Source: Candidatus Omnitrophota bacterium
GTDB lineage: Bacteria; Omnitrophota; Gorgyraeia; Gygaellales; Profunditerraquicolaceae
Assembly (NCBI GenBank): GCA_043807505.1
Contig: JAZDFW010000089.1
Coordinates: forward strand, 1 to 55,353
Length of the DNA stretch: 55,353 nucleotides
Direction of reading: 5' to 3'
The position numbers were made by a program, and so were the translations under genes. Of the stretch, positions 4,543 to 55,353 are shown piece after piece (within the stretch, counting starts at the first letter, position 1; every line of letters starts with the position of its first letter). The notes beneath the pieces are model-generated. The model did no database searches, was not told the origin of the DNA, and saw only the letters and a list, made by a program, of their open reading frames with translations.

Positions 4543-6123
4543 TTATTGGTGGACACGATAATCTATACTGGAGAATATATTATCCTTATATTCGACATCC
4601 GCAAGCCACGATTCGTCAATGCAATTTGATTTTATCTGTTCATATAAGCTCGCGAATCGCAGAAGATGTTCTTTTGTCCGACGAACAGCATACTCGGTAT
4701 GTGTACCGGTGCCCATAATAAATGCCCAATCAGAACTCTGCGCTAAAAGCAATTCACGCAATGCCTGATTTAATGCTCTCTGCAAAACGCCGTTGCCAGA
4801 ATTATGTGAATTAGTTTTTACTAACTCGGTCATACGCTCGCTTGCCTTGTGCAAATGACGATAGATCCAATCATTAGGGCCCTGCAGCCACATCTCACTA
4901 TACCCCTTCCATCCCCAGCTAGACATTGACGGAGCCACTACTTGATTCCGAGGATTTTCTAGTAGATACTCAGAAGGCGTAATCATACGGATTGTCTTCT
5001 GGTCAAAATAAATCTTGCGGATTAAAAAATCAAGCCACATCGGCCCTTCATACCACCAATGGCCGTAAAGCTCAGCATCATAGGGAGAAATAATCAAAGG
5101 CTTTTTTTGCATGAAGTCATACAGATATTCTATTTGTTTTTCGCGATTAAATAAAAAATTTCCTGCATGCTGTGCAGCTCTTTCTTTTGCCCAATGAGGA
5201 TTATAAGGCTGTTTGTCGTCGCTACCTGTAATTCTATAATATTTTATGCCTGTATTAATCCTTATGCCGTCAGGATGGATATAGGGTTTAATATAATCGA
5301 AGTCCAAGTCAAAACCTATATCGCGGTAAAATTCCCGATAAGCATAATCTCCCGGATAGCCCTCAATGGAAGACCAGACTTGCTTTGAAGATTCCAGGTC
5401 GCGAGCGAAACACGCAATCCCTGATTTGCAATATACCGGCGCAAAAACGCCGTATTTAGGACGGGGCGTCCCGTGCAATACGCCGTGCGCATCGCTAAAG
5501 AAATAACGCAAGCCCGATTCTTTTAAAATCTCATCGTGGCCCGGATGATAACCGCATTCAGGGAGCCAAATTCCTTGCGGCTTCCTGCCGAAAATACCTT
5601 CGTAATGATTAACCGCTACTTTAACCTGGGCCCTGACCGATTCACGACAGACATCCATCAAAGGAAAATATCCGTGTGTTGCTCCACAGGTAATAATTTC
5701 CAGCTTCCCTAAATCCTGAAATTTCTTGAATGCATTAACAAGATTATGATGATACGCCTCAAAAACATTTCGGCAGAGGCAGAAATTATTTAAATACATT
5801 CCTGCCAAATGCCCAAAATCAGGTTGCCAACGTGTCCTTTCTACTTCCTTGCCTGCCAACTCAATCAATCTGTTAATGTGCCTTACATACCTTCCCTGTA
5901 GAAGCGGATCGGTTAGCATGGAAATCAATGTTGGGGTAAGCGACATTGTGACTCTAAAATCTACCCCGTCATTTACAAGGCCCTCAAAGACATTTATCAA
6001 AGGAATGTAGGTCTCGGTTATAGCTTCAAAGAGCCAATCCTCTTCAAGAAAATCTTCGTGTTCCGGGTGCCTGACAAACGGAAGATGGCAATGCAGCACT
6101 AAACACAGATATCCTTTATTCAC
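4543..6123 (-). CDS. glycoside hydrolase family 57 protein (alpha-glucan branching enzyme-like, DUF1957 C-terminus)
   Basis: The GYLCLVLHCHLPFVRHPE N-terminus and WLPECGY motif are typical of GH57 branching enzymes. Length is 526 aa. Confidence 0.8.
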   Translation of the reverse strand: MNKGYLCLVLHCHLPFVRHPEHEDFLEEDWLFEAITETYIPLINVFEGLVNDGVDFRVTMSLTPTLISMLTDPLLQGRYVRHINRLIELAGKEVERTRWQPDFGHLAGMYLNNFCLCRNVFEAYHHNLVNAFKKFQDLGKLEIITCGATHGYFPLMDVCRESVRAQVKVAVNHYEGIFGRKPQGIWLPECGYHPGHDEILKESGLRYFFSDAHGVLHGTPRPKYGVFAPVYCKSGIACFARDLESSKQVWSSIEGYPGDYAYREFYRDIGFDLDFDYIKPYIHPDGIRINTGIKYYRITGSDDKQPYNPHWAKERAAQHAGNFLFNREKQIEYLYDFMQKKPLIISPYDAELYGHWWYEGPMWLDFLIRKIYFDQKTIRMITPSEYLLENPRNQVVAPSMSSWGWKGYSEMWLQGPNDWIYRHLHKASERMTELVKTNSHNSGNGVLQRALNQALRELLLAQSSDWAFIMGTGTHTEYAVRRTKEHLLRFASLYEQIKSNCIDESWLADVEYKDNIFSSIDYRVHQ

Positions 6124-42366: not shown

Positions 42367-42406
42367 AAAAAAGTAAGGCCCGATTTAAAATAAAACCGGG
42401 CCTTAC
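42367..42406 (-). terminator. rho-independent terminator downstream of the cold-shock gene
   Basis: On the minus strand, the stem GTAAGGCCCG(G)/CGGGCCTTAC has a 13-nt AT loop and is followed by TTTTTT. Confidence 0.75.
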
Positions 42407-42428
42407 TTATCTGCTTCTAACCCAAAGG

Positions 42429-42629
42429 TTATAACTTTACAACCTTTGTAGCTTGATCACCTTTAGGGCCTTTTTCAACTTCGAATTCAACTTCTTGGCC
42501 ATCCTCTAAAGTCTTATAGCCGTCACCCTGAATTGCAGAATGATGTACGAATACATCGCTTCCAGATTCAGTAGTAATGAAACCATAACCTTTTTGATTC
42601 GAAAACCACTTTACTTTACCTCTAGCCAT
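42429..42629 (-). CDS. cspA: cold-shock protein (CspA family)
   Basis: KGYGFI (RNP1) and VFVHHS (RNP2). 66 aa. Confidence 0.95.
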
Positions 42630-42773
42630 TACTTACTACCCCCTTCCTTTTTCATTTTTTTAGACAGTAAATAATGGCAGAAAAAAACCGTAAGGCGAAT
42701 TCTTCATACCCTACGGCTTTCAAGACTTCTACTCCCTTATTTACCACTATCATATTTACCATTTTCAAAAGGG

Positions 42774-42957: not shown

Positions 42958-43701
42958 TTATTTTTGAGTTTCATCCAAAATACGAATAAGCGGTTCTTCC
43001 CAGCCAAAACAGGTAATCCCTATACCAATAAGTGCCTTAAACGCCTCAATGCATTCGGGGTCAATTTGCACGAACTCTTCAAGCATCCGTACAACCTCAT
43101 TCATAAATCCACCCACAATACCATTCGAGTCGTCTACACCGCCGACGCGTAACTTTTTATCCAGCCGTAAAAGTAGTTTTACCAGAATTTCAGCCGCCTG
43201 CCTGTTAACCGGCAAATCAGAAACTACCGCCGATAGCATATTGCATCCTTCACGCAGCGAATCCTGATTCGCAAACCAGGTGCGCGACGGCCCACTGTAT
43301 GGTTTGATATACCGTAAGGCCTCAGTGATAGATTTTTTAACCACGGTTAACTCTTCTTTATTTATCGCTCTCTGCTGCCTACTGCACTCGACCTGATGAT
43401 CAAGTTCCTTGTCTTTATCGTTTAAGGGGCGGCCAGCCATGACAACATGGAGTGCTAAAGCCACTATATGTTTGCAAAGCGTATCTTTTTCACCAAGATA
43501 GCAAGTACAACTTCCGTGTTTATAATTTCGGGCCGATACTGAAACCCGATAAGGCCTTGTCCCCAAGACAACAGCGGTATAATTCCCACCCCACTCCTCA
43601 ACTTCTGTCACCTTACCGCTTTCATATAAACCCACCGCGCGCTGGAATGTTGCCTCGTCGGTCGCAAATTTAATTTTGTTAAGGTCGTATGATAGAATCA
43701 T
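42958..43701 (-). CDS. SWIM zinc-finger protein, function unknown
   Basis: CTCYLGEKDTLCKHIVAL fits the SWIM pattern CxCx(n)CxH. The helical C-terminal region is unassigned. Confidence 0.65.
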   Translation of the reverse strand: MILSYDLNKIKFATDEATFQRAVGLYESGKVTEVEEWGGNYTAVVLGTRPYRVSVSARNYKHGSCTCYLGEKDTLCKHIVALALHVVMAGRPLNDKDKELDHQVECSRQQRAINKEELTVVKKSITEALRYIKPYSGPSRTWFANQDSLREGCNMLSAVVSDLPVNRQAAEILVKLLLRLDKKLRVGGVDDSNGIVGGFMNEVVRMLEEFVQIDPECIEAFKALIGIGITCFGWEEPLIRILDETQK

Positions 43702-44252: not shown

Positions 44253-45590
44253 TCATATTCTGGGAATATGATGGAAAACAACTGAGTTTCCAATTTTTAG
44301 TTTCTCAATGAATTTTCCAGCTTTTTTTCGTTTTCTATTATTTGGACTAGTTAATTTTAATGATTTCTCAAACTCTTTTTCATCAATAAACTTCTCAGTG
44401 TTAATCTCGTTGTAATAGCAAAATAGTGGCACATGTTTTAATTTAGTATCAGCAAACATCGCGCCATTAAATAAATAAAGCCCCGTTAAGTATCCTTCTA
44501 AATAAGAATGCTCAAGCCAATTTAGTTTATATTTCTTTACAAGGCTCTCGTATGCATTAATCGAATTTAATAAATACTTAGTACACAGGGATTTTCCTCC
44601 TTTGACTTTATTTATCAAATATTGGAATGCATGCAAGATGCCATCTTGGTAAGAGAGACAATAAATAATCTCCGGGAATTTAGTATGTTTATACTTCCTT
44701 GATGTTATATCATGTCTTCTTAGGACATATTCTTGTATTGATAATACCTTAGATAAATTTTCCAAAGGCAATAAACATCCTTTTTGCTCAAACCTTTTTC
44801 TTAATTGACGAATAAAATAACTTCCTTCAGTATAAATCGGTTTCAAATTATATTTAATCCAGTTCTTTTCATTGGATCTATCTAGCGTAACAACATAGGC
44901 CTGTCTTCGAAAATCGCCCATTTTACTCGAGATGTATTTGTAAATTCTTTGGAAATCCTCATCTTGGAATGAATATCCAATAAAAACAATAATATTTTGA
45001 GCTAGAAATAATTTCAATTTGCTCCCAATTGTATTCCTATTTAATTCTCGATAGCATCTTTTGTAATCTTCTTCTGTCGCAACAATAGATCCTAAGTCAT
45101 TTATCGAACCGTGGATTTTCAGAACTCTTCTACTTGAGGTATTCCAGAATGGAACATCAGTGTCATACACAAAGGGAGTAGCATTTGATATGGTTTCTAA
45201 GAAATCGTCCCAATTGGTTGTAACGAGATTTTCAACGCAAGGAAAAACAGAAATTTCTTCATGAAATTCAGTAGCTCGGTTAAATAATTCAGGCCATGCT
45301 TTAAAATAATCGAGTCTTTCTCTAATTTTATTAATTAAAGGTGCTCTACTTCCAAATTTTTTAACATGTAAACTCATTACTTTGGAAAATGAAAGAGCTT
45401 TATTGTTTTTTAATTTAAGCTCAACAAGAACGCTTTCATAAAAAGTATCAGGAAATACTCTTTTTGCCTCCGTGCTGATGCCTGCTCCAATGAACAAAAC
45501 TACGTCGTGAATTTCATTGATAATCTCTTCTGGCAAGACGAATTCAATATAATCCCGACATGTCTTACAATCTTTATTAAATTTTTTCAT
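44253..45590 (-). CDS. SIR2-family (SIR2_2/DHS-like NAD-binding, defence-type NADase) protein with an unassigned C-terminal domain
   Basis: VVLFIGAGIST glycine-rich loop, TTNWDD (catalytic Asn context), VLKIHGSINDLGSIVATEEDY (catalytic His) and VFIGYSFQDEDF. 445 aa. Confidence 0.75.
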   Translation of the reverse strand: MKKFNKDCKTCRDYIEFVLPEEIINEIHDVVLFIGAGISTEAKRVFPDTFYESVLVELKLKNNKALSFSKVMSLHVKKFGSRAPLINKIRERLDYFKAWPELFNRATEFHEEISVFPCVENLVTTNWDDFLETISNATPFVYDTDVPFWNTSSRRVLKIHGSINDLGSIVATEEDYKRCYRELNRNTIGSKLKLFLAQNIIVFIGYSFQDEDFQRIYKYISSKMGDFRRQAYVVTLDRSNEKNWIKYNLKPIYTEGSYFIRQLRKRFEQKGCLLPLENLSKVLSIQEYVLRRHDITSRKYKHTKFPEIIYCLSYQDGILHAFQYLINKVKGGKSLCTKYLLNSINAYESLVKKYKLNWLEHSYLEGYLTGLYLFNGAMFADTKLKHVPLFCYYNEINTEKFIDEKEFEKSLKLTSPNNRKRKKAGKFIEKLKIGNSVVFHHIPRI

Positions 45591-45877
45591 ATAATTCTGG
45601 GGACATCATACTTACCTTTCTCAATTAAGTATTGTGTCCCCCAAATTCCATTGCTTAGATCTTGAGTTCGCAAATCATCTCGCCATTGAGAACTACTCCA
45701 TCTTCTTTGGTCTATTTTTTCTTTCTCCTCTGATTGTAATAGCAACGCAATATTGCCTAGAATAATTAGAATGACGAAGAGAATTTTCCACCTTAAAGAC
45801 AATATTTTTTTATAATCAAAGGACATCCTACTAGTTATTATCGCGCTCAATAAAAATATTGCTATGATAGCAAACAT
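45587..45877 (-). CDS. small two-TM membrane protein translationally coupled to the SIR2 gene
   Basis: Two hydrophobic helices (FAIIAIFLLSAIIT and WKILFVILIILGNIALLL). An AGAGGAAAG RBS is present and the stop overlaps the SIR2 start (ATGA). The last ~19 codons are encoded by repeat copy B. Confidence 0.55.
   Translation of the reverse strand: MFAIIAIFLLSAIITSRMSFDYKKILSLRWKILFVILIILGNIALLLQSEEKEKIDQRRWSSSQWRDDLRTQDLSNGIWGTQYLIEKGKYDVPRII
45593..45649. repeat. inverted-repeat element, copy B
   Basis: An identical 22-mer, AATTCTGGGGACATCATACTTA (45593-45614), then 18 nt, then TGTGTCCCCCAAATTCC (45633-45649). Confidence 0.85.
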
Positions 45878-46041
45878 CTTTCCTCTATCAATTACCCCTT
45901 TTAATAATTATATCCCGAATATCTCATTTATCTTAGCCTTCCACTCATTCTCATAAATTACCTTAAACTCAAATTTATTGAAAACTATGGACCGTTTCTA
46001 TCTATCGAAGCCCGAAGTGTCCCCTAGTTTCATTTTGACAA

Positions 46042-47580
46042 TCACAAAGTTGCTTCATTTAATGTCATCTTTTCTTCAAGACCATAAACAAATTTATCTA
46101 TATTTGAAATTCTTACTTCAAAGCCATCATTTTTTATAAATTTAAAGTAGCGTTCGGTATCAATGAAAGATTTAGGAGAAATGAACACAGCGTACGACTT
46201 AACACCATTTTTAATATATTCCTCAAGGTGCCTTTGCACCGAAAACGACTCTCTAATATGTTGTTGCGTACCTGTAAGTAAAGTAACTTCTATTAAAACC
46301 GTGTCCTCGTCTTCCAAGCATTCAATATCAGGATTCCCGCCCGATGCAAAACTCGTCGGTAAACCCTCGTCATCCGAGACAAAATTTGGTTTTACTGTTA
46401 CATTTGGTAATTTTTTAAGAATAGCCAGAGAAGTTAAAAATTCCAAACGCAAAGGCTGATCTATAATTTTCAGAATATTATCTCGGGAAGATTTTTTCTG
46501 CGCTAAATTAAGCATTTCAGTCCTAATTACTTCCCACTCGTAATGATTTACCCATTTTTCTAGTTCTATCTTGGTAGTTCTAATAGGTGCTTTATACACT
46601 GAAAGTGTAGCAATTAAATTGGCATCAACCGCTCCGATATAATCAAAAAAATCTTTTTCAGCCGTAAACGTTGGATAGGAAATATAATTTTCTAAAATAT
46701 AGCTTATCGCTGTTATCTCTTTTGTATTAATGTCAATAAAACGACCGCCGCCACGCAAAGAAATTAACCCAGTTAAACGCATTTTACGAATAAAATCATC
46801 AGGGTAATCGCCTAAAATAGAATTATCATCTCGCTTAGTTTCATTGAGTAGTTTATAACAAAGCTTCAAAATAGTTTCATTACTCGGCGAAAAGCCATAT
46901 TTTTTACGCAATTTTTTTATTTCCCGATATAGACTATTCGCATTATCGTTTTTCCAACACAACAATAAAGGAACTTCCAATCTTGAAATGCCTGCACCGT
47001 TAAAATCGGCATCTTTGTTTAAAAGTTTAATTGTCTGTATTAATAGAATTAAGGGCACATTTTTATTTAAAACTTTACGAAACGGATTTTGACGTTGATA
47101 TTTTGCAAAAGCATTAGCAAAAACCATTAATTCGTGTTCAGGTTTTTCTTTATCTAATAACATTTTTCCACTTTCAGAAAATTTTATTTGCTCGTTTTGC
47201 CAATACCAAACAAAGCCTAATTCTTTGGCTATTTTAAACCAAGTATCAAATCTTGACGGCCAACCTTTATCAAAACCTGCTTCCTTATGGCTTTGTGGAT
47301 TATTAATAAATGCTTGTTCGGTTTCTATTTTGCTTAATTCTACCTCATTTTTCCATTTATTCTTTATGCATAGAGAGACCTTCATAGGACGATACAAGCC
47401 TTTTTGAATCAAAACCTTGGCTACTTTTTCGATAATTTTATTCGTCAAAATTTTGCCATCATGCTCACTAAGAATTGTTAAAAAATCCTTTAATCGTTCA
47501 GGATTTCTTATTGTTGTCGTAAATAATAAAGGCTTATATTCGGATTGGCGTTTTTTCATAGTTTTAATAATTAGTAACAA
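46042..47580 (-). CDS. putative restriction endonuclease, AlwI-family-like (type IIS-type); family assignment tentative
   Basis: It lies last in an operon with two m6A methyltransferases. The N-terminal LLFTTTIRNPERLKDFL resembles the AlwI-family N-terminus as I recall it. The C-terminal GGNPDIECL...VLIEVTLL is a PD...E-x-K-like core. An alternative start exists at M8 (47559). Confidence 0.5.
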   Translation of the reverse strand: MLLIIKTMKKRQSEYKPLLFTTTIRNPERLKDFLTILSEHDGKILTNKIIEKVAKVLIQKGLYRPMKVSLCIKNKWKNEVELSKIETEQAFINNPQSHKEAGFDKGWPSRFDTWFKIAKELGFVWYWQNEQIKFSESGKMLLDKEKPEHELMVFANAFAKYQRQNPFRKVLNKNVPLILLIQTIKLLNKDADFNGAGISRLEVPLLLCWKNDNANSLYREIKKLRKKYGFSPSNETILKLCYKLLNETKRDDNSILGDYPDDFIRKMRLTGLISLRGGGRFIDINTKEITAISYILENYISYPTFTAEKDFFDYIGAVDANLIATLSVYKAPIRTTKIELEKWVNHYEWEVIRTEMLNLAQKKSSRDNILKIIDQPLRLEFLTSLAILKKLPNVTVKPNFVSDDEGLPTSFASGGNPDIECLEDEDTVLIEVTLLTGTQQHIRESFSVQRHLEEYIKNGVKSYAVFISPKSFIDTERYFKFIKNDGFEVRISNIDKFVYGLEEKMTLNEATL

Positions 47581-48469
47581 GGATCTCTTTAATTTTCTTT
47601 TTTCCGTTATTATGATAACTAATATAATTACTTTTTATTTTGTAAATTTTGTATTTATTCATCCATTTAATCAACGCATCATTTTTACTCCCGTTATAAT
47701 GCGTTACATTTGACAATGCAAATCGTACAGATTTTTTATTTAAATTATCAATTAAGTTTAGTAAATCAGATTCAGATTTCTGATCCCAAAATTTATTATA
47801 TTCACTCGCAGCTATTAAATAAGGGGGGTCTAAATAAACAAAATCATTTGCTGAAAATTTTATTTCAGAAAAAAAACTTCTAAAATCTTTTGAACTCAAT
47901 GCTGTCTTTTTATCTTGTACAAAATAAAAATAATTGTTTAAAGCATTAACAACATTTTTATTAAAATCGACATTTCCCACTGGGAGATTAAATCGACCCC
48001 CGCCATTGAATCTCAACATTCTGTTAAAACCATATATAAGCAAAATATACAAAATTAAAGGGTCATTATCATTATTTTTATTGACACGGTCTCTTAATTT
48101 TTCGTAGCCCTCTTTGTTGAATCTTGCATAATAAGTTTTTTCCCATTCTTTTTTTAGTGAATCCGGAATTACATCTTCTTTAAATGACCTAGATAGATTA
48201 TATTTGTATATTATTTTTTCAACACTTTTAAAAAAACGAATTGGATTCTTTGAATTTTCAATTAAAAATCGGTGTATGTTAATAAGGTTTTGATCTATGT
48301 CATTTAAAGAATACCTTTTTGCCTTGATATTTAAGAAAACGGTGCCACCACCAACAAAGGGTTCATAAAAATGATTTATTTCTTGCGGAAATAAATCAAT
48401 CAATTGTTTCATCAATTTATATTTATCTCCGACATAAAACAATGGGGATCTTTTAATTTTACTAAACAT
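47564..48469 (-). CDS. Dam-like (D12 class, alpha group) N6-adenine DNA methyltransferase
   Basis: FYVGDKYKL, EPFVGGGTVFLN (FxGxG) and YLDPPY (motif IV). 301 aa. Confidence 0.88.
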   Translation of the reverse strand: MFSKIKRSPLFYVGDKYKLMKQLIDLFPQEINHFYEPFVGGGTVFLNIKAKRYSLNDIDQNLINIHRFLIENSKNPIRFFKSVEKIIYKYNLSRSFKEDVIPDSLKKEWEKTYYARFNKEGYEKLRDRVNKNNDNDPLILYILLIYGFNRMLRFNGGGRFNLPVGNVDFNKNVVNALNNYFYFVQDKKTALSSKDFRSFFSEIKFSANDFVYLDPPYLIAASEYNKFWDQKSESDLLNLIDNLNKKSVRFALSNVTHYNGSKNDALIKWMNKYKIYKIKSNYISYHNNGKKKIKEILVTNY

Positions 48470-50276
48470 GGTTAATTTTTGTTACAAATAGATATTCTTT
48501 ATGGTTTTTAAATTCAGTATTGCCTGCGTTAAAATGTCTATATTCTTTTTCAAAAACCTTGGTTTCACCTTTTGCCGTCAAAATATTTTTAATTTCTTGG
48601 AGAGTAATTTTGTTTTTTGACGAGTTGCTTTTAGAAGCGTACGTATTATTATATGACACCACTAAATATTTTGCGTTAATATCTTTTACCAGCTCAGCAA
48701 GCTTATTTTTGGCTTGCACTCTACAATAATCGCTCATATTTTCAGAATCGGGCTTCAGTGCTGTACCGTATAATTTTGGCTTATCCCATTTGGTTAAAGT
48801 TTCTAGTACATGATAAAATCTGCTATACTGCCTCGAATTATACGGCGGATCAACATAAACTATATCTGCTCTGATTTTCTTCACCAACAGATTTGCATCT
48901 TCTCTAAAAATAGTTGCATTTTTTACATTTATCGGATCTATGGGCTTCATAAAAAATCCATCCTCAATGTAATCTTTTTTGAAATACGCATCGTAGTGGC
49001 CAACAGTATTAGCTATTTTATCAATTGAATATAATAGAGACGCCATAAGAATATAGTATTCTTTACTCGTTAAATTCTTTTTGTTTTCTTCAATATTTTC
49101 TCTGATAAATCCAATAATTTTAGATGATTTATGACTAAAATACTTACCTCCAAAATATTCGGAGAAATAATTATCTTCTAAATTTTCGCTATCAATATTA
49201 TTGTAGTCCTTAATAATATTACTGATTTTGTCTTTGTCCCATTTACCCTTACCAAAAAAAGCTTGATAAATTGCATGATTAGAGTGTAAAAAATCATTTA
49301 ATATGACCTCTTCAAAATGCCTCGCTGCAACAGCAGACACGACTCCAGTACCTGCAAAAATATCAGCAAAAGAATTTCCCTTCTCACATTCTTTGTTAAT
49401 TATAGAAAAAATCCACTCTATCAATTTATGCTTGCTGCCAATATACCTGCGGTTTTGTAGTTGGAGATGATTTTTTCTTATTTGCGGAATATAAAAATAT
49501 GTCTCCTTTACCTTTTCTGCATTTATTTCATAAGCGGGTTTTTCAATTTCCAGTAAATTAAAAAATGTTGTTTGTATTTCATCGGATACATAATCGAGAT
49601 TTTTATCTTTAATTTTTAATTTTTCATAAAAACTATAGCTCCCATTATTTACTGTAATAATAAAATCTAAAACAGCAATCCCCATTATTTCTCCTGCCTG
49701 AGATATTTTCTTAACAATCTCAATGTCTTTTCCACTTGGAGTTGAGACTCCCGATGGGTGGTTATGAATTAAAATAATACTTGCAGCATTAATTTCTACT
49801 GCTGGATAAAAAACTTCTCTTGGATGTATCAAGCTTTTATCGAGTAAACCAATACTTATAGTTTCTTTTTTGATTAAAATATTTCTTGCATTAAGGTACA
49901 GACAAACTAAATACTCCTTTTTCTTATCTCTCAAATCATAGGTAAGCGATAGAACATCCTTGTGATTCTTTATTATGACTTCATTTCCTTTTTCTTCTTC
50001 ATAAAACCTTTTTACTAAAGAAATTGCGGAAACTATTTGTAACGCTTTAACTTGTCCAATGCCTGGAATTTCTAACAAATTACCGACTTCAATATTCAAA
50101 AAACTTTTACCAAATTTTTTTATAATGTGTTCTGAAAGCTGCCTAACATTTTTACCCTTAATTCCACTTCCAAGTAATATTGCCAAGAGATCGCTTTTGG
50201 AAAGAGCATCTGCTCCTTTTTTTAGAAATCTTTCCCGCGGACGATCCACAAGAGGAATATCTTTGATTTTTGTCAT
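48462..50276 (-). CDS. fusion of a full-length RadC/JAB (MPN) domain protein to a D12-class N6-adenine DNA methyltransferase
   Basis: Residues 1-~225 give PLVDRPRERFLKKGADALSKSDLLAILLGSG, an HhH, and HNHPSG (JAMM motif). The C-half gives RYIGSKHKL, FAGTGVVS (FxGxG) and VYVDPPYNSRQY (DPPY). Confidence 0.85.
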   Translation of the reverse strand: MTKIKDIPLVDRPRERFLKKGADALSKSDLLAILLGSGIKGKNVRQLSEHIIKKFGKSFLNIEVGNLLEIPGIGQVKALQIVSAISLVKRFYEEEKGNEVIIKNHKDVLSLTYDLRDKKKEYLVCLYLNARNILIKKETISIGLLDKSLIHPREVFYPAVEINAASIILIHNHPSGVSTPSGKDIEIVKKISQAGEIMGIAVLDFIITVNNGSYSFYEKLKIKDKNLDYVSDEIQTTFFNLLEIEKPAYEINAEKVKETYFYIPQIRKNHLQLQNRRYIGSKHKLIEWIFSIINKECEKGNSFADIFAGTGVVSAVAARHFEEVILNDFLHSNHAIYQAFFGKGKWDKDKISNIIKDYNNIDSENLEDNYFSEYFGGKYFSHKSSKIIGFIRENIEENKKNLTSKEYYILMASLLYSIDKIANTVGHYDAYFKKDYIEDGFFMKPIDPINVKNATIFREDANLLVKKIRADIVYVDPPYNSRQYSRFYHVLETLTKWDKPKLYGTALKPDSENMSDYCRVQAKNKLAELVKDINAKYLVVSYNNTYASKSNSSKNKITLQEIKNILTAKGETKVFEKEYRHFNAGNTEFKNHKEYLFVTKINHV

Positions 50277-50303: not shown

Positions 50304-50335
50304 CAAAAAACCCTCGCCATTTCTAGCGAAGGTTT
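50304..50335 (-). terminator. rho-independent terminator-like hairpin ~28 nt upstream of the RadC-MTase start
   Basis: The minus strand reads CCUUCGC-uagaaaug-GCGAGGG (7 bp including one G-U), followed by TTTTTTG. Confidence 0.6.
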
Positions 50336-50394
50336 TAATTATATTAACGTGGCAGTTCCCCCTTCAAACATACCACACCTAATTTTCACTTCTA

Positions 50395-50456: not shown

Positions 50457-50582
50457 TTAGAACCTTAGAATTTTCAAAACTCCCGCGCCCTTCTTTAAGA
50501 GCTTCTCCCTCGGCCTGTCATCCTCCGGCCAATTCTTTATCGATTTTTCATAGAGTTTTCTTTGCCCTGACTTTTTCACCAT
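50457..50582 (-). pseudogene. radC: truncated radC remnant (first ~36 codons only)
   Basis: My own translation gives MVKKSGQRKLYEKSIKNWPEDDRPREKLLKKGAGVLKILRF*. The WPEDDRPREKLLKKGAGVL stretch is the conserved RadC N-terminus. The sequence then diverges and stops where the expected S(D/E)xELLAILL should follow. Confidence 0.65.
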
Positions 50583-50755
50583 TATTTATTCGTCCTTGAT
50601 TTTATAAAATCTTCTAAATCCTCGGGTTTAACGCGCCACTGTCCTATTTTAGTAGCCCGAATTTGCTTCTCCCGAATAAGCTCACGGATTCTATACTCAG
50701 TAAGGCCTAATTGTTTAGCAACCCGTCTGACTGTAAGGTAATCTTTTATAGTCAT
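50582..50755 (-). CDS. excisionase/AlpA-type helix-turn-helix DNA-binding protein (57 aa)
   Basis: My own translation gives MTIKDYLTVRRVAKQLGLTEYRIRELIREKQIRATKIGQWRVKPEDLEDFIKSRTNK, which fits the HTH_17/excisionase pattern (L(T/S)..E(V/A)A..LG(V/L)S...I..L...G.I.A.K.G..WR). It is below the ORF-track length cut-off. The stop overlaps the radC-remnant ATG (TAATG). Confidence 0.7.
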   Translation of the reverse strand: MTIKDYLTVRRVAKQLGLTEYRIRELIREKQIRATKIGQWRVKPEDLEDFIKSRTNK

Positions 50756-50800: not shown

Positions 50801-52093
50801 TTATAGAAAAAATTCCTCGCCATCTTTTAGTATCAGTACATTTTTGAAAAGTACCGGATATTCTTCAGCCTCAAAGGTATGTATTGGTATAAGCGTCTTA
50901 GGATTTATGCCACTAGCAAATGATTCAAGATCTTCTTTTGTGGCATGGCCGCTTGTATGAACGTATTCTACAGATAACCCCTTGTCTTTACAAAATGCCC
51001 TAAATCCTTCGGAAAGATATCCATCCCACATAGAATATGCTATCTTAGCACCTGCCACATCCTTAATTTTATTTAAAAACAATGGAAAGACGGAATTATC
51101 ACGCGCAAGCATAAGAATTCTATTCTTGTTCCTACTAATTTCGGGCATTTCAATCTTTCTTTTGTTGTAGATATAGAGCAAGTCTATGTGGCCCGCTCTT
51201 TCAAGCGCCTTCGCATGGGTATTAAGAAACTTGACTCTAATATTCTTCCAATTAAACTGAGGAATTCGATCAGAGACTTTTTTGAGTTTATCCAGAATAA
51301 AAGCTGTATAAATATCAATGACGAAGATTGAATCAGTCTTAAGGCACGCTCTGTATGCCGAGACAATTCTGTCGATATTCTGAGATGAAGTAAAGAAAAA
51401 GGTTATATTCTTTCTTTCCCTCAGAATTTCCTCAAGCCGGTTTTCAACATCTCCCTCAGCTTTATACTGAGCATCCTCTCTGCCAAGCGCTGAACCCTCC
51501 ATAAGCAAACAGTCTATATTCTGGGGTGGACTCTTAATAATCTGCTTAAATAATTTAGCTTTTCTCCCATGGGCTCTAAAATCTCCGGAATAAAATAGCC
51601 TCTTTCCATCTGCCTCAATCAGGAAGGCAAAGGCATCAAAAGCAGAGTGATCAACCAGAAACGGCTGAATGATAAAATCACCTATTCTAAACCGCTTCTT
51701 ATTGCTGATTATGTTTGTATTTATCTTGCCGACTTTGGTGGGGACAAAGATATTGGAAACGTCTATAAGAATGCCGGCGCCTCGACTTAAATAAATCGGT
51801 ATTTCCGGATTAACATATTGAAGAAAACCGTAATGATCAAGGTGAGAATGAGAAATCAATATTCCGTCTATCTCTTTTTTCTCATCCTTATAGAGCCCCT
51901 TTATGTCGGGAAGGATACCTTGTGCCCTGAGATCCTGTATTGTCTTACCTTTGAGCAAATTCGCATCAAATGGTTTACAGTCACGAGTGACCAAGGGAAT
52001 GCCGAAATCAATCAATATCCTATTGTTAGCCGCCTTTAGCTCAACACAACTTCCGCCTATTTCATGAGTACCACGGTGAACGATTATTTTCAT
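50801..52093 (-). CDS. metallo-beta-lactamase-fold nuclease of the beta-CASP type (RNase J/SNM1-like)
   Basis: SHSHLDHYG (HxHxDH), VDHS and YSGDF, a beta-CASP insert, HTSGHA (motif B) and IPIHT (motif C). 430 aa. Confidence 0.75.
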   Translation of the reverse strand: MKIIVHRGTHEIGGSCVELKAANNRILIDFGIPLVTRDCKPFDANLLKGKTIQDLRAQGILPDIKGLYKDEKKEIDGILISHSHLDHYGFLQYVNPEIPIYLSRGAGILIDVSNIFVPTKVGKINTNIISNKKRFRIGDFIIQPFLVDHSAFDAFAFLIEADGKRLFYSGDFRAHGRKAKLFKQIIKSPPQNIDCLLMEGSALGREDAQYKAEGDVENRLEEILRERKNITFFFTSSQNIDRIVSAYRACLKTDSIFVIDIYTAFILDKLKKVSDRIPQFNWKNIRVKFLNTHAKALERAGHIDLLYIYNKRKIEMPEISRNKNRILMLARDNSVFPLFLNKIKDVAGAKIAYSMWDGYLSEGFRAFCKDKGLSVEYVHTSGHATKEDLESFASGINPKTLIPIHTFEAEEYPVLFKNVLILKDGEEFFL

Positions 52094-52986
52094 ATATTAA
52101 ACGGGTTTCCGTCAGGATTTTCCCACCAACGAGATGGCAATTCAATTATTCTGAGCTTCACTTGGCCTTTAAGCGGCCATTCAGGTATTTTGTGTGGTTT
52201 TATTACTACTGCAATTGCTTCAATGCCTTTTTGACTAAAATCATAATTGCCTAAAGGCATATAGTGTTCTCTTATCATTTCTTCAGGGGTACCTAACTCC
52301 GGATCAAACTTACTTCCACTATGCAAAAACCAGTTTGAATAATCTTGCAGTTCATTGATAGCGGTACTTAAATTGTAATCTTTCTTCAATTCTACTATTA
52401 CACTTTTTCCATCTCTGTTAAGACTAAATAAATCAATATGAAAAGCTCTTCTTCTCGTCTTTGACGGTTTTACTACTACTGGAACTTGTGAAACCACATT
52501 ACTCAAATCTGTGTTAATACCTAGATGCTCCCGGGCACGTTTCCCTCCTTCAGTGTCAGATAAAATCAGGCTTTCAAGCCAATGTTCCATCGAAAACCCG
52601 GGGATCATTCGTTTCTGTCTCGGGTGCTCTACAAAATCAGGCCGCTCCATAATTGGCTGTACAATTTTCAAGAATTCACTTACTTTATCTAAGGTTTGGC
52701 CTTCTGATATTTTTAAAGCTCTCCTTACTTTACTATTTCTGACTTCTAAAGTAAGTTTATACTTATTCTCAGAAGTAAGCTGCAATAACTCAAGTCCGCA
52801 ATACCTAAAACTAATATGCTTACTAACAAATGCTAATCTTGGCGTTACCACAAGATTTTTGCCATCAATAAATGGTTGAAAGAGATCTTCAACCTCTTTT
52901 ATCCGCTCTTGCGTTATTTTCCATCCGGCCTCCTGAAACTCTTTGGTTTGGACGGTTTGTATAGCAAAATAGTTGAATAGGCTCAT
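52090..52986 (-). CDS. protein with a C-terminal NucS/DUF91-like PD-(D/E)xK nuclease domain; N-terminal domain unknown
   Basis: EHWLESLIL...HIDLFSLNRDGKSVIVELKKDYNLSTAINELQDY matches the E...D...E-x-K...Q..Y layout of NucS-type nucleases. Its stop overlaps the MBL start (4 nt). Confidence 0.55.
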   Translation of the reverse strand: MSLFNYFAIQTVQTKEFQEAGWKITQERIKEVEDLFQPFIDGKNLVVTPRLAFVSKHISFRYCGLELLQLTSENKYKLTLEVRNSKVRRALKISEGQTLDKVSEFLKIVQPIMERPDFVEHPRQKRMIPGFSMEHWLESLILSDTEGGKRAREHLGINTDLSNVVSQVPVVVKPSKTRRRAFHIDLFSLNRDGKSVIVELKKDYNLSTAINELQDYSNWFLHSGSKFDPELGTPEEMIREHYMPLGNYDFSQKGIEAIAVVIKPHKIPEWPLKGQVKLRIIELPSRWWENPDGNPFNI

Positions 52987-53002
52987 AGTTTTCCCAAATT
53001 TA

Positions 53003-54493
53003 TTATTTAGAAGATATATTACCCAGCGAATCCAATATTTCTATCATACCCTTTGTATCTAAATCACAATACTTCTCAAGAGCGGCACGGATGCGCTGAC
53101 GCTCCTTTTCGGCAACTTCTTTCCCAAAAGTTACCCGACAATACTCAATACTCGCCATCCCACCATCAGCTATTTCCATGTTATTGTAGTTCGATTTTGT
53201 CATTACAGGGAGAACGCTCTTGAGCGAAGCGCTCCCTGCTTGGTCTGGATGGTAATAAAGAAAACCTCGGAAAGGTGTAAGTAGATCAACAACGCGCTCC
53301 TCCACCGATGTCACCCATCCTTGATACTCAGGATATGCCTCGCTTGCATGCCGAAGCGTTGTCTTCTCAAACGTAGCGTTGTAAGCAATAACTGATCCTG
53401 AATTTCCTAACAACGCTTTTAATTGCTTTAGAATCTCAGGTCTTGGGTCTTTATCCCCGGGCGCAAGATATGAGTGGTGCTCGGGTTTCATGCCTTTCTC
53501 TTTGATTACATATAAAGAATATTGAAAAGGGATCGCTTCAAACGGCCTAGAATTATCATAAGCAGGTATTGCCGGGTTAATCGTTTCGAAATCAAGGAAA
53601 TAAAGAGGGTACTCTAACGTGTATAGAAAGTCCTTTATCCCTTTCTTATCAACGTGAGGAAGGTTTGTTTTACAACATTTGACCTGGATACTCTGCTTAT
53701 CGCTCAGTTTTACATCGTCTTTGATATCGGCAATACTCAATACCCCGCGCTCTAATAGCTCATAGGCCTTCTTTTTACCCGAATACAAACAAAAGATATC
53801 ACCTTTTTCAGGCAGAAAGCCCCAACATATATCCTCAAGCGGACATGGATATGGGCTATCACAATGCGGACCTACTTTTACTTGCAACGCATCCTGTTTC
53901 TTTATTATCTCAAGCATATCGGCTATGTTTTGCTCTATTTCCGGAATGAGCTCATCGCATTGTTTAGTGACATCTTCTGTGGCAAATAGTTTCTTCGGCT
54001 CTATCGCTCCTTTACGCACATATTGGTTATTGATATACATGAGGTAACACTTGCGGATCTTCAGGCCTGAGCCTTCATATAAATACTTTTGAAAGGCGAC
54101 GTCATTATAATGCTCATCCTTTACGCTGCTGGAGCTTTTCACTTCAATGAGATCCCATGCGCCCTTCTCAACTGGGTTAAGTATATCGGCTAGGGCATAG
54201 CCTTGTTTATGCACAAAACATGCTTCAAAAAGAGGTTTTCGAAGCTTGGCGGCCTCCAAAGACTTTGTTGCCTGTTTAGCTGGATCATAGTCTCTTCCGA
54301 GAACAATGCCACCGGGAAAGAGTGTATGTGCTAGCTTTCCGACAACCGTGCCTTGATCCATTATAGCCTGTGTAGCAGCATCAATCTCCGGCAGGTCTTC
54401 CTTGCGGTTATACTCATACCATAGAAGCTTATGGCATTTAAGCCCTTCGAGGTATTTAGTTTTGGACAAAAATGGAGATGGTCTATTTTTCAT
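53003..54493 (-). CDS. DUF2779-type protein: Cas4/RecB-like PD-(D/E)xK nuclease (with Cys cluster) plus a C-terminal RNase H/DnaQ-like domain
   Basis: LSKTKYLEGLKCHKLLWYEY is a DUF2779-type N-terminus. Also DLIEVKSSS (D..E-x-K), CDSPYPCPLEDIC (3 Cys, plus the N-terminal Cys as in Cas4/AddB Fe-S nucleases) and YFLDFETINPAIP...PFQYS. Confidence 0.7.
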   Translation of the reverse strand: MKNRPSPFLSKTKYLEGLKCHKLLWYEYNRKEDLPEIDAATQAIMDQGTVVGKLAHTLFPGGIVLGRDYDPAKQATKSLEAAKLRKPLFEACFVHKQGYALADILNPVEKGAWDLIEVKSSSSVKDEHYNDVAFQKYLYEGSGLKIRKCYLMYINNQYVRKGAIEPKKLFATEDVTKQCDELIPEIEQNIADMLEIIKKQDALQVKVGPHCDSPYPCPLEDICWGFLPEKGDIFCLYSGKKKAYELLERGVLSIADIKDDVKLSDKQSIQVKCCKTNLPHVDKKGIKDFLYTLEYPLYFLDFETINPAIPAYDNSRPFEAIPFQYSLYVIKEKGMKPEHHSYLAPGDKDPRPEILKQLKALLGNSGSVIAYNATFEKTTLRHASEAYPEYQGWVTSVEERVVDLLTPFRGFLYYHPDQAGSASLKSVLPVMTKSNYNNMEIADGGMASIEYCRVTFGKEVAEKERQRIRAALEKYCDLDTKGMIEILDSLGNISSK

Positions 54494-54499
54494 ATTCCG

Positions 54500-55033
54500 C
54501 TATTTGAGCTCTACAGGACCATGATCAGGAAGTGCCTTTTCCTTGGTCCTCACCAATTCCAAAAAATATGCATATTTTGTACCACGTATCTCAGGATTTG
54601 CTTGCTGCCGCAATAAAATCCGCAGCTTGCGTTTATCATATTTTCTATTTATCTCACTTTGGTCGTTACCCCATTGTGTTTTATACTTGATTTCGCATAC
54701 CCAGAGCATGGGTTCATTTACCTTTTTGTCGCCATCATTAAATCCAGAGCCCTCATAAATAACGATGTCCGGGTGATATCTTTCTCCTTTTTTGATATAG
54801 GTCAATGGGTTACAATAAACCCGCTCAAACCTCGCTTCTTTATTCATGTATTTTTTATAACAATGGGTTGTTTTGTCAAGGTGCTCAAGGGCTCCTTTTA
54901 TCCTTACATAAAGCTCCCCGTGCACATCGGTCTCAGAGTCCCACAAATACGGATATTTCTTCCATTCTTTTACAAATTTACTCACTTCTCTTTCAGCGAT
55001 TTTAACTATTTTCTTTTCGTTCTTTTTATTCAT
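54500..55033 (-). CDS. small PD-(D/E)xK-like protein, function unknown
   Basis: HPDIVIY...WVCEIKY reads as a classical PD...E-x-K core. I prefer the start at the ATG at 55031-55033 (MNKKNEKK) because it forms an ATGA overlap with the upstream ORF's stop. The track ORF starts 10 codons earlier. Confidence 0.5.
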   Translation of the reverse strand: MNKKNEKKIVKIAEREVSKFVKEWKKYPYLWDSETDVHGELYVRIKGALEHLDKTTHCYKKYMNKEARFERVYCNPLTYIKKGERYHPDIVIYEGSGFNDGDKKVNEPMLWVCEIKYKTQWGNDQSEINRKYDKRKLRILLRQQANPEIRGTKYAYFLELVRTKEKALPDHGPVELK

Positions 55034-55353
55034 TGGGCAATCCTTTGCGTTAAATGTTCCCACTGATTTTTAATCTTGATACTGCTGGGTAGATCGGTAT
55101 ATTTCTGCCAGGGCCTCGGGAGAAGCCCCCTATAAATCTTGTTCTCTTCTTTCATAGATGAATACAAATCCGGAATGGGATAGATACCGCCTTTTATTTT
55201 TATCCCTTCCGCAGCGGCACGTACAAAAGGAGAAATTTCTCGAACGGCAGATAAAAGATGCCGCGGATGAGACGGGACGCGAATTATCACCCATTTATTC
55301 AACAGCCCGCACTTATCAACAGCCGCTGACAGAGAAAGGAAGTAGCCTCGCGG
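55030..55353 (-). CDS. C-terminal part of an unidentified protein; reading frame open to the right edge
   Basis: The minus-strand frame is open from 55353 (PRGYFLSLSAAVDKCGLLNKWVIIRVPSHPRH...) to the stop at 55030. I recognise no motif. It is translationally coupled to the next gene. Confidence 0.45.
   Translation of the reverse strand, partial: PRGYFLSLSAAVDKCGLLNKWVIIRVPSHPRHLLSAVREISPFVRAAAEGIKIKGGIYPIPDLYSSMKEENKIYRGLLPRPWQKYTDLPSSIKIKNQWEHLTQRIAQ

Follow-up and report, generated by a model that had tools for sequence, protein, structure and literature searches.

A conserved beta-CASP nuclease with exchangeable PD-(D/E)xK partners: a candidate immune gene pair at a defence hotspot of Omnitrophota

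The window analysed here, a stretch of 55,353 nucleotides (nt) of contig JAZDFW010000089.1 from a Candidatus Omnitrophota bacterium, carries a nuclease-rich operon at 50.5-55.35 kb. Two of its genes, coding for a protein of 298 amino acids (aa) and for a metallo-beta-lactamase (MBL) nuclease of the beta-CASP class, form a pair, the one arrangement common to all related loci examined (~108). Rather than a five-gene machine, the region is the conserved edge of a defence hotspot, made up of a number of separate nuclease genes. The reading favoured for the pair, to which roughly even chances are given on grounds of sequence and gene context, is that of a two-nuclease immune cassette whose specificity subunit is exchangeable and which is directed against nucleic acid of phages or plasmids. 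Its two genes are:

52986..52090, minus strand: 298-aa protein (variable partner), an unknown N-domain plus a NucS/Card1-type PD-(D/E)xK C-domain
52093..50801, minus strand: beta-CASP MBL nuclease, 430 aa, the conserved half of the pair

The beta-CASP nuclease and its variable partner

The MBL is a minimal beta-CASP enzyme from a large and highly conserved family, which a preliminary description of this DNA had overlooked. It contains the HxHxDH motif, a further H and D, and beta-CASP motifs A, B and C, and in 20 homologues HSHLDH (residues 82-87), H149, D171, H379 and H405 are invariant or nearly so. Two Pfam domains score above their cut-offs, Lactamase_B_2 (56.4 versus 27 bits; E 3.9e-15) and RMMBL (29.1 versus 21.6 bits; E 1e-6). 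The family comprises 5,842 clusters at E<=1e-20, with a mean column identity of 74% among 20 diverse members, and the nearest homologues come from metagenome-assembled genomes (MAGs) of the Omnitrophota type; phage records hold relatives at only ~21-28% identity. Among solved chains the closest is EF2904 (2az4; E 1.7e-19), an uncharacterised protein, followed by RNase J proteins as the best named ones. Assignment to a known family was rejected for RNase J orthologues (89.9 bits versus 400 for TIGR00649, 60.9 versus 820 for NF047419), for Cas14 of type VII CRISPR (26 bits versus a cut-off of 800) and for RNase Z (score far below the family cut-off), and none of the PADLOC-DB v2.0.0 models matched the MBL at E<=0.1. 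RNase J and SNM1 are 5'-to-3' exonucleases and endonucleases that act at 5'-phosphate ends, and a histidine at beta-CASP motif C and the RMMBL domain are pointers to an RNA substrate. The histidine at motif C and the RMMBL match of the MBL make us lean towards RNA, rather than DNA, as its substrate.

The 298-aa protein gave a confident AlphaFold2 (AF2) model (predicted local distance difference test, pLDDT, 90.4; predicted template modelling score, pTM, 0.90). Its C-domain (~130-298) is matched by Foldseek to Card1, Can2, NucS, VC1899 and SduA (E 3e-4 to 1e-2), which, together with the invariant D185, E199 and K201, identifies a PD-(D/E)xK fold; across homologues, E134, E138, D185, E199-L-K201, E212 and Y216 do not vary. 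The family profile matches NucS (2vld) at E 7e-4, over ~45 core residues only, and identity with NucS/EndoMS was rejected, the protein reaching 18.7 bits versus 216 (NF003270) over residues 159-220 only. The protein contains no Pfam domain, profile and Foldseek searches with the N-domain (~1-125) returned neither a sequence nor a fold relative, and PADLOC-DB v2 gave only weak matches to the nuclease core of PDC-S11. The family is tiny, with 19 clusters and 30 representatives among 1.84 billion proteins.

The related loci (individually labelled with L-numbers) were retrieved via the 298-aa family and via the MBL in GTDB genomes, JGI metagenomes and viral contigs; 83 of them are non-redundant and contain a full-length MBL. 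In the window, the start codon of the MBL gene overlaps the stop codon of the 298-aa gene by 4 nt, and all loci retrieved by the 298-aa family have the MBL directly downstream with the same 4-nt overlap. At least 62 of the 83 non-redundant MBL loci have a co-directional upstream open reading frame (ORF) of 180-400 aa that overlaps the MBL start or ends no more than 60 nt from it, the 4-nt overlap being the commonest arrangement (24 cases). Since catalytic residues are kept across homologues and the adjacency of the two genes recurs, the observation is more than chance.

The partners of the MBL split into at least eight families that lack BLAST similarity to one another. Profile comparison with hhalign links several of them (c0-c2, 96%; c0-c1, 69% over 212 columns spanning both domains; c0-c5, 61%; c3-c5, 58%), and every family keeps the pattern E..E / D / E-x-K / (Q/E)xxxY at similar spacing. 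Because of these links and the common residue pattern, the families are predicted to be extremely diverged members of one NucS/Card1-like nuclease superfamily. Their nuclease cores weakly match the PADLOC candidates PDC-S02 (4e-8), PDC-S11 and PDC-S18, as well as CARF_PDDEXK.

The partner is hypervariable and, as sequence comparison indicates, exchanged by recombination between closely related MBLs, another trait that the preliminary description had overlooked. When loci with MBLs of at least 80% identity are compared in pairs, the partner families differ in 37 of 52 cases. The seven MBLs nearest to that of the window (84-90% identity) are accompanied by partners of families c4, c2, c8, c0, c4 and c7, the seventh partner being truncated where its contig stops, and none of the seven carries c1, the family of the window. 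At L012, both the DUF2779 protein (a neighbour of the pair, see below) and the MBL are 86% identical to those of the window, with a gene in between whose product bears no relation to the 298-aa protein; likewise, four loci with the context ClpB-[partner]-MBL-sulfatase have partners of families c5, c4, c2 and c5.

Outside the Omnitrophota-type genomes, full-length MBL homologues of 32-38% identity were found on plasmids of Rhizobium, Ochrobactrum, Cupriavidus, Cereibacter and Sphingomonas. In all five plasmid records with a detectable c2-like partner, this partner lies within ~700 nt of the MBL, on either side, and the gene order of the pair is sometimes reversed. The plasmids include mobilizable and conjugative ones, with the pair beside restriction-modification (R-M) genes. 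A small protein of 124-158 aa (GIFW...HY..W...EYE..PRGR...D.HYR) accompanies the pair on proteobacterial plasmids (L108, 5516-5992; L109, 5558-5953; L110, 7256-7630); a hidden Markov model built from it matched nothing in the Omnitrophota-type loci, and it may be a third component of the plasmid variant.

In viral contigs the pair is rare (4 loci in 2.9 million contigs, versus at least 544 in metagenome contigs). A phage origin was considered and seems unlikely, as PHROGs yielded only a generic hydrolase, the viral contigs only these 4 loci and the viral fold search generic PD-(D/E)xK proteins. Genes for TerL-like proteins and ParB-methyltransferases neighbour the pair at L001, L018, L058, L064 and L115. 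A set consisting of a ParB_N-N6/N4 methyltransferase, a ~225-aa protein and a TerL-like protein recurs near the pair at L001, L003, L018, L058, L064 and L115, so that a part of the copies may be carried by elements resembling prophages or satellites.

Neighbouring genes and the defence hotspot

The other features of the operon and its downstream border are:

55353..55030, minus strand: partial ORF, truncated at the edge of the window, coding for the C-terminal portion of an unknown protein
55033..54500, minus strand: small putative PD-(D/E)xK protein, 177 aa from ATG, 187 aa from an upstream GTG
54493..53003, minus strand: DUF2779 protein, 496 aa, Cas4-like PD-(D/E)xK domain plus DEDDy 3'-5' exonuclease domain
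50755..50582, minus strand: excisionase-type helix-turn-helix (HTH) gene, 57 aa (Pfam HTH_17, 1e-11; TIGR01764)
50582..50457, minus strand: radC 5' remnant, 41 aa, with the motif WPEDDRPREKL in its translation
50336..50307, minus strand: strong intrinsic-terminator-like hairpin, 13 pairs followed by a T-run
44253..50276, minus strand: low-GC island with RadC-JAB/D12 fusion, D12 methyltransferase, AlwI-type endonuclease and SIR2_2

Much of what the preliminary description had read from this layout was borne out. All five genes of the operon lie on the minus strand, the ATGA overlap between the partial ORF and the 177-aa ORF can be read directly in the sequence, and the 6-nt gap, 16-nt gap and 4-nt overlap that follow are exact by coordinates. 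The catalytic motifs listed for the small protein, the DUF2779 protein, the 298-aa protein and the MBL are all present and conserved in homologues, the protein families and folds had on the whole been assigned correctly, and the described context of R-M, SIR2, an excisionase-type gene and a radC remnant is found in the window. The proposal that the five or more genes constitute one system was not supported, synteny of the homologues failing for three of the five.

One of these is the DUF2779 gene. Its product matches PF11074 with E 1.4e-39 (135.6 bits versus a cut-off of 23.3; residues 298-423), its Cas4-like N-terminal half matches the PADLOC Cas4 model (2e-8) and reaches 20.8 bits with Pfam Cas_Cas4, just under the cut-off of 22.7. 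In 17 homologues, C20 and C211/C217/C223, D114/E117/K119, D301/E303 and Y475/D479 are invariant; with four cysteines and the DEDDy residues, the protein is a Cas4-DEDD fusion, in keeping with the literature, where the family is called uncharacterised and described as joining Cas4 to a 3'-5' exonuclease (PMC3985635, PMC13621843). No identical-sequence record was found for it. When the 42 non-redundant loci with at least 3 kb of upstream sequence were counted, DUF2779 was near the pair in 10, always co-directional, with 0 to 5 unrelated genes in between and once downstream, against an expectation of ~0.2% for a single random gene if the genome measures 2 Mb. The association between DUF2779 and the pair is real but not obligatory. 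At L006 (5204-11130), the genes that come after DUF2779 code for a DUF6361 protein, one of 628 aa and a large one of the DEAD/Helicase_C type, and a reverse transcriptase and an HTH gene lie between this block and the MBL pair; these DUF2779-linked genes may represent another helicase-based module.

The small putative PD-(D/E)xK protein has E40, D89 (in P-D) and E114-I-K116 invariant in 20 homologues; 25 homologues were found, one of which carries a Pfam Uma2 domain. Its AF2 model (pLDDT 84) gave weak fold matches (best E 2.5e-3; template modelling score ~0.3), mostly to PD-(D/E)xK nucleases such as MGME1, Cas4 SSO0001 and RecE, and PADLOC-DB v2 gave no match. A 62%-identical homologue stands alone by an R-M/AbiGi island, without DUF2779 or MBL (L111/L112); at L006 and L029, members of the family precede DUF2779. 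The ~200-aa proteins upstream of DUF2779 at L011 and L030 are not homologous to the 177-aa protein of the window (hhalign), so the slot upstream of DUF2779 is variable too. The small protein behaves as an independent gene.

The partial ORF is 64% identical to a 257-aa protein of L011 (602-1375), and gave no Pfam, PADLOC or PHROG match. At L011, L029 and L030, the 257-aa family and a ~170-aa family precede the ~200-aa slot and DUF2779, and no ATPase or sensor was seen upstream. Thus, the suggestion that an ATPase or sensor follows past the right edge of the window was not substantiated, the cluster of the relatives beginning with two small unknown proteins instead (~170 and 257 aa; L011, L030). 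Proteins of 170-180 aa from one family occur near the pair in three positions, at the head of the DUF2779 block, just after the MBL and just before the partner (L011, 86-598; L030, 1732-2256; L019, 1984-2526; L074, 8743-9285; L115, 5896-6426); this family, too, was without Pfam, PADLOC or PHROG matches.

Downstream of the pair, the HTH gene follows the MBL at a distance of 45 nt in the window and 46-50 nt at L029 and L012, and is displaced by inserted defence genes at L030 and L028. L012 contains two paralogous 57-aa HTH genes (1421-1591 and 5432-5602; 75% and 81% identical to that of the window) which flank DUF2779-partner-MBL; this suggests cassette-like boundaries. DUF2779, the small PD-(D/E)xK protein and the HTH protein are encoded by neighbouring, separately inherited genes. 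In the window, the ATG of the radC remnant overlaps the HTH stop codon (TAATG), the two thus being translationally coupled, and the hairpin closes the transcription unit ahead of the R-M island. The GC content of the island is 0.29-0.33, versus 0.38-0.42. Because the radC remnant is followed by the terminator and then by a full RadC-JAB domain fused to a D12 methyltransferase (48462-50276, minus strand), the low-GC R-M island appears to have entered at radC through recombination, together with a radC-methyltransferase fusion of its own.

The genes found next to the pair differ from locus to locus:

Window, after the MBL: type IIS R-M island (at radC) plus SIR2_2
L029, after the MBL: BrxA, BrxC and PglX (BREX)
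L012, after the MBL: AbiU-like protein, SNF2 helicase, type III methyltransferase and endonuclease
L028, after the MBL: TmtA-like gene
L030 and L047, after the MBL: 800-aa (L030) or 639-aa (L047) protein plus DruE (E 6e-190; Druantia)
L004, beside the pair: type I R-M plus SIR2
Rhizobium plasmid, beside the pair: R-M genes

The slot after MBL/HTH is a defence hotspot in this lineage, occupied by different systems in different genomes. Further neighbours of the pair are a reverse transcriptase (L006), an HNH nuclease with an integrase (L009), serine recombinases and GIY-YIG genes.

Beyond the island of the window, Pfam identified lipopolysaccharide (LPS) biosynthesis genes. Between these and the R-M genes lie genes for a 247-aa SWIM zinc-finger protein (42958-43701, minus strand) and the 445-aa SIR2_2 protein (44253-45590, minus strand), which may form a further defence module. 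All gene-like ORFs of at least 120 aa between positions 750 and 55353 are on the minus strand, a long co-directional stretch to which genes of LPS core biosynthesis (LpxK, heptosyltransferases) belong, and most sub-windows show a negative GC skew. Rfam detected no structured RNA or repeats in the operon; its sole match in the window is a cspA thermoregulator at 42372-42738 (minus strand; E 1e-12; 57.7 bits, which falls short of the gathering score, 78), overlying a gene for a 66-aa cold-shock protein at 42429-42629.

Readings of the pair and of the operon

The favoured reading of the pair as a two-nuclease defence cassette follows from the turnover and swapping of partners, the location on islands and plasmids, the links of the partners to PADLOC candidates and the precedent of MBL effectors (PMC12799240). 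The variable PD-(D/E)xK protein would recognise the target and make the first cut, and the conserved beta-CASP enzyme would then degrade the cut target. Complex formation between the two proteins, this order of action, the substrate and a defence phenotype are what we infer for the pair. The wider claim, a widespread two-component immune system in which interchangeable restriction-enzyme-like specificity nucleases (at least eight families) serve one degradative nuclease without methyltransferase, ATPase or protease, is put forward tentatively, at somewhat less than even chances.

Several observations weigh against an immune function. The MBL is unusually conserved for an immune gene, the pair also occurs in stable, housekeeping-looking contexts (ClpB/sulfatase; PBP1C/alpha-2-macroglobulin), and recurring neighbours resemble enzymes of repair or end-processing (AP_endonuc_2, a PNKP-like HAD phosphatase, DUF2779). 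A sensor, an ATPase and a means of self-protection, for instance a methyltransferase, are all missing from the pair, which leaves the discrimination of self from non-self unexplained. The association with defence genes consists of example loci, not of a background-controlled enrichment statistic, and the loci come mainly from one phylum (Omnitrophota-type MAGs), hence are not fully independent; homology of the more distant partner families is based on low hhalign probabilities and shared motifs. Candidate defence gene pairs are, in general, common.

The main rival, which is considered unlikely, is that of a housekeeping repair or end-processing function, the NucS-like endonuclease and the SNM1/RNase J-like exonuclease processing damaged DNA or RNA ends, with DUF2779 (Cas4 plus MrfB-like exonuclease), AP endonuclease 2 and a PNKP-like phosphatase as further partners. 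The high conservation of the MBL (74% mean column identity) would fit such a role, as would the stable chromosomal context in some lineages (ClpB-x-MBL-sulfatase), the match of the 298-aa profile to the mismatch endonuclease NucS, and neighbours such as AP_endonuc_2, a HAD_PNKP-like protein and DUF2779, whose exonuclease domain resembles MrfB (PMC13621843). However, the partner in a repair pathway would be expected to be conserved, yet at least eight unrelated-looking families have been swapped between near-identical MBLs, and the 298-aa protein fails the NucS family model (18.7 versus 216 bits). The pair also resides on mobilizable and conjugative plasmids by R-M genes, and directly beside BREX, Druantia, type III R-M and TmtA-like genes. 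If the pair is a repair module nevertheless, its extreme partner turnover would need explaining. An integrated multi-nuclease defence system of all five or more genes, with more components past the window edge, as the preliminary description had it, is thought very unlikely. DUF2779 is absent from 32 of the 42 loci and, where present, either has 0 to 5 unrelated genes between itself and the pair or is located downstream; the family is also widespread in stand-alone form, with members as far away as Mycoplasma. The small protein can be found by itself, and the relatives show no upstream ATPase or sensor. These observations stand against the tight spacing in the window without a convincing internal terminator, the occurrence of DUF2779 within 9 kb on the same strand at 10 of 42 loci, far above the ~0.2% expected, and the recurrence of the block of 170-aa protein, 257-aa protein, ~200-aa slot and DUF2779 at L011, L029, L030 and in the window.

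If, on the other hand, the MBL (and DUF2779) were ordinary chromosomal genes flanking an integration hotspot, the variable upstream gene would be nothing but unrelated cargo. In the clade of the window, variable cargo is indeed present upstream and downstream of the MBL as well as between it and DUF2779, and the MBL is far more conserved than its surroundings. But at position -1 the cargo invariably codes for one kind of protein with a common nuclease core, in most cases it extends over the start codon of the MBL gene, and the association survives transfer to proteobacterial plasmids and order reversal in five of five records, which leaves this explanation with little probability. Equally improbable is a toxin-antitoxin or addiction module, in which one nuclease would be the toxin held in check by its translationally coupled neighbour. 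The overlapping two-gene architecture on plasmids and islands would suit such a module, and gated, toxic MBL nucleases have a precedent in immunity, but both proteins have complete nuclease active sites, so that neither looks like a simple antitoxin, and the phylogenies of partner and MBL are discordant, which is unexpected for tightly co-evolving pairs.

If the pair is immune, as favoured here, bacterial immunity other than CRISPR type VII would gain a beta-CASP nuclease, of the class to which RNase J, CPSF-73 and Artemis/SNM1 belong, and the pair would be a natural case of a conserved effector served by a library of exchangeable nuclease/specificity subunits. It would then bear on the evolution of arms races and be a source of new nucleases specific for sequence, structure or modification. 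In Omnitrophota-type genomes the pair is a marker of a defence hotspot, and the hypothesis is open to direct testing because homologues exist on plasmids of Rhizobium, Ochrobactrum and Sphingomonas, which can be cultivated.

Comparison with known systems

The proteins of the operon derive from known superfamilies (DUF2779, beta-CASP MBL, PD-(D/E)xK), and the pair they include is apparently undescribed; no published description of it was found in the literature on DUF2779 and on MBL/beta-CASP proteins in defence. PADLOC-DB v2.0.0 made no system assignment, in agreement with the preliminary view that no named defence system fits, and returned no component matches that would make up a system, DUF2779 obtaining Cas4 domain matches only.

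A role as degradative effectors is known for MBL-fold nucleases from Hachiman, Avs and canu systems (PMC12799240). As in the pair, the MBL-fold nuclease of Hachiman (HamMAB), Avs and canu is a separate gene by a variable partner, and the module is exchanged between systems; in contrast to the enzyme described here, the MBLs of these systems are ComEC-like, have no beta-CASP insert and are activated by an adjacent trypsin- or caspase-like protease (PMC12799240). Here, a beta-CASP/RMMBL enzyme is combined with an active-looking PD-(D/E)xK partner. A module of the HamM/Avs/canu type was rejected, given the different MBL subtype and the lack of a protease domain in the five proteins of the window (Pfam).

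Among single nucleases, Shedu (SduA) and the candidates PDC-S02, PDC-S11 and PDC-S18 share with the 298-aa type a NucS-related PD-(D/E)xK core behind highly variable N-terminal regions. Shedu is, however, a single-gene system, whereas the 298-aa type has another nuclease, a conserved one, as its obligate partner. The Foldseek match between the 298-aa protein and SduA (8ps4) is weak (E 1e-2), and identification as SduA was rejected, neither Pfam DUF4263 nor PADLOC SduA giving a significant match. NucS/EndoMS resembles the 298-aa protein in the layout of N-domain and C-terminal RecB-like nuclease and has the same core motif, but NucS is conserved and stand-alone, whereas the 298-aa type is hypervariable, MBL-paired and has an N-domain without similarity. 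With RNase J, CPSF-73, SNM1 and Cas14, the MBL of the window shares HxHxDH, the beta-CASP motifs and the RMMBL motif; unlike RNase J, it is without the RNase J C-terminal domain. Although the pair contains no methyltransferase, and its variable component is itself a nuclease, it shares with type I R-M systems (HsdS), as an evolutionary pattern only, the combination of conserved enzymatic subunits with a diversifying specificity component that is swapped by recombination.

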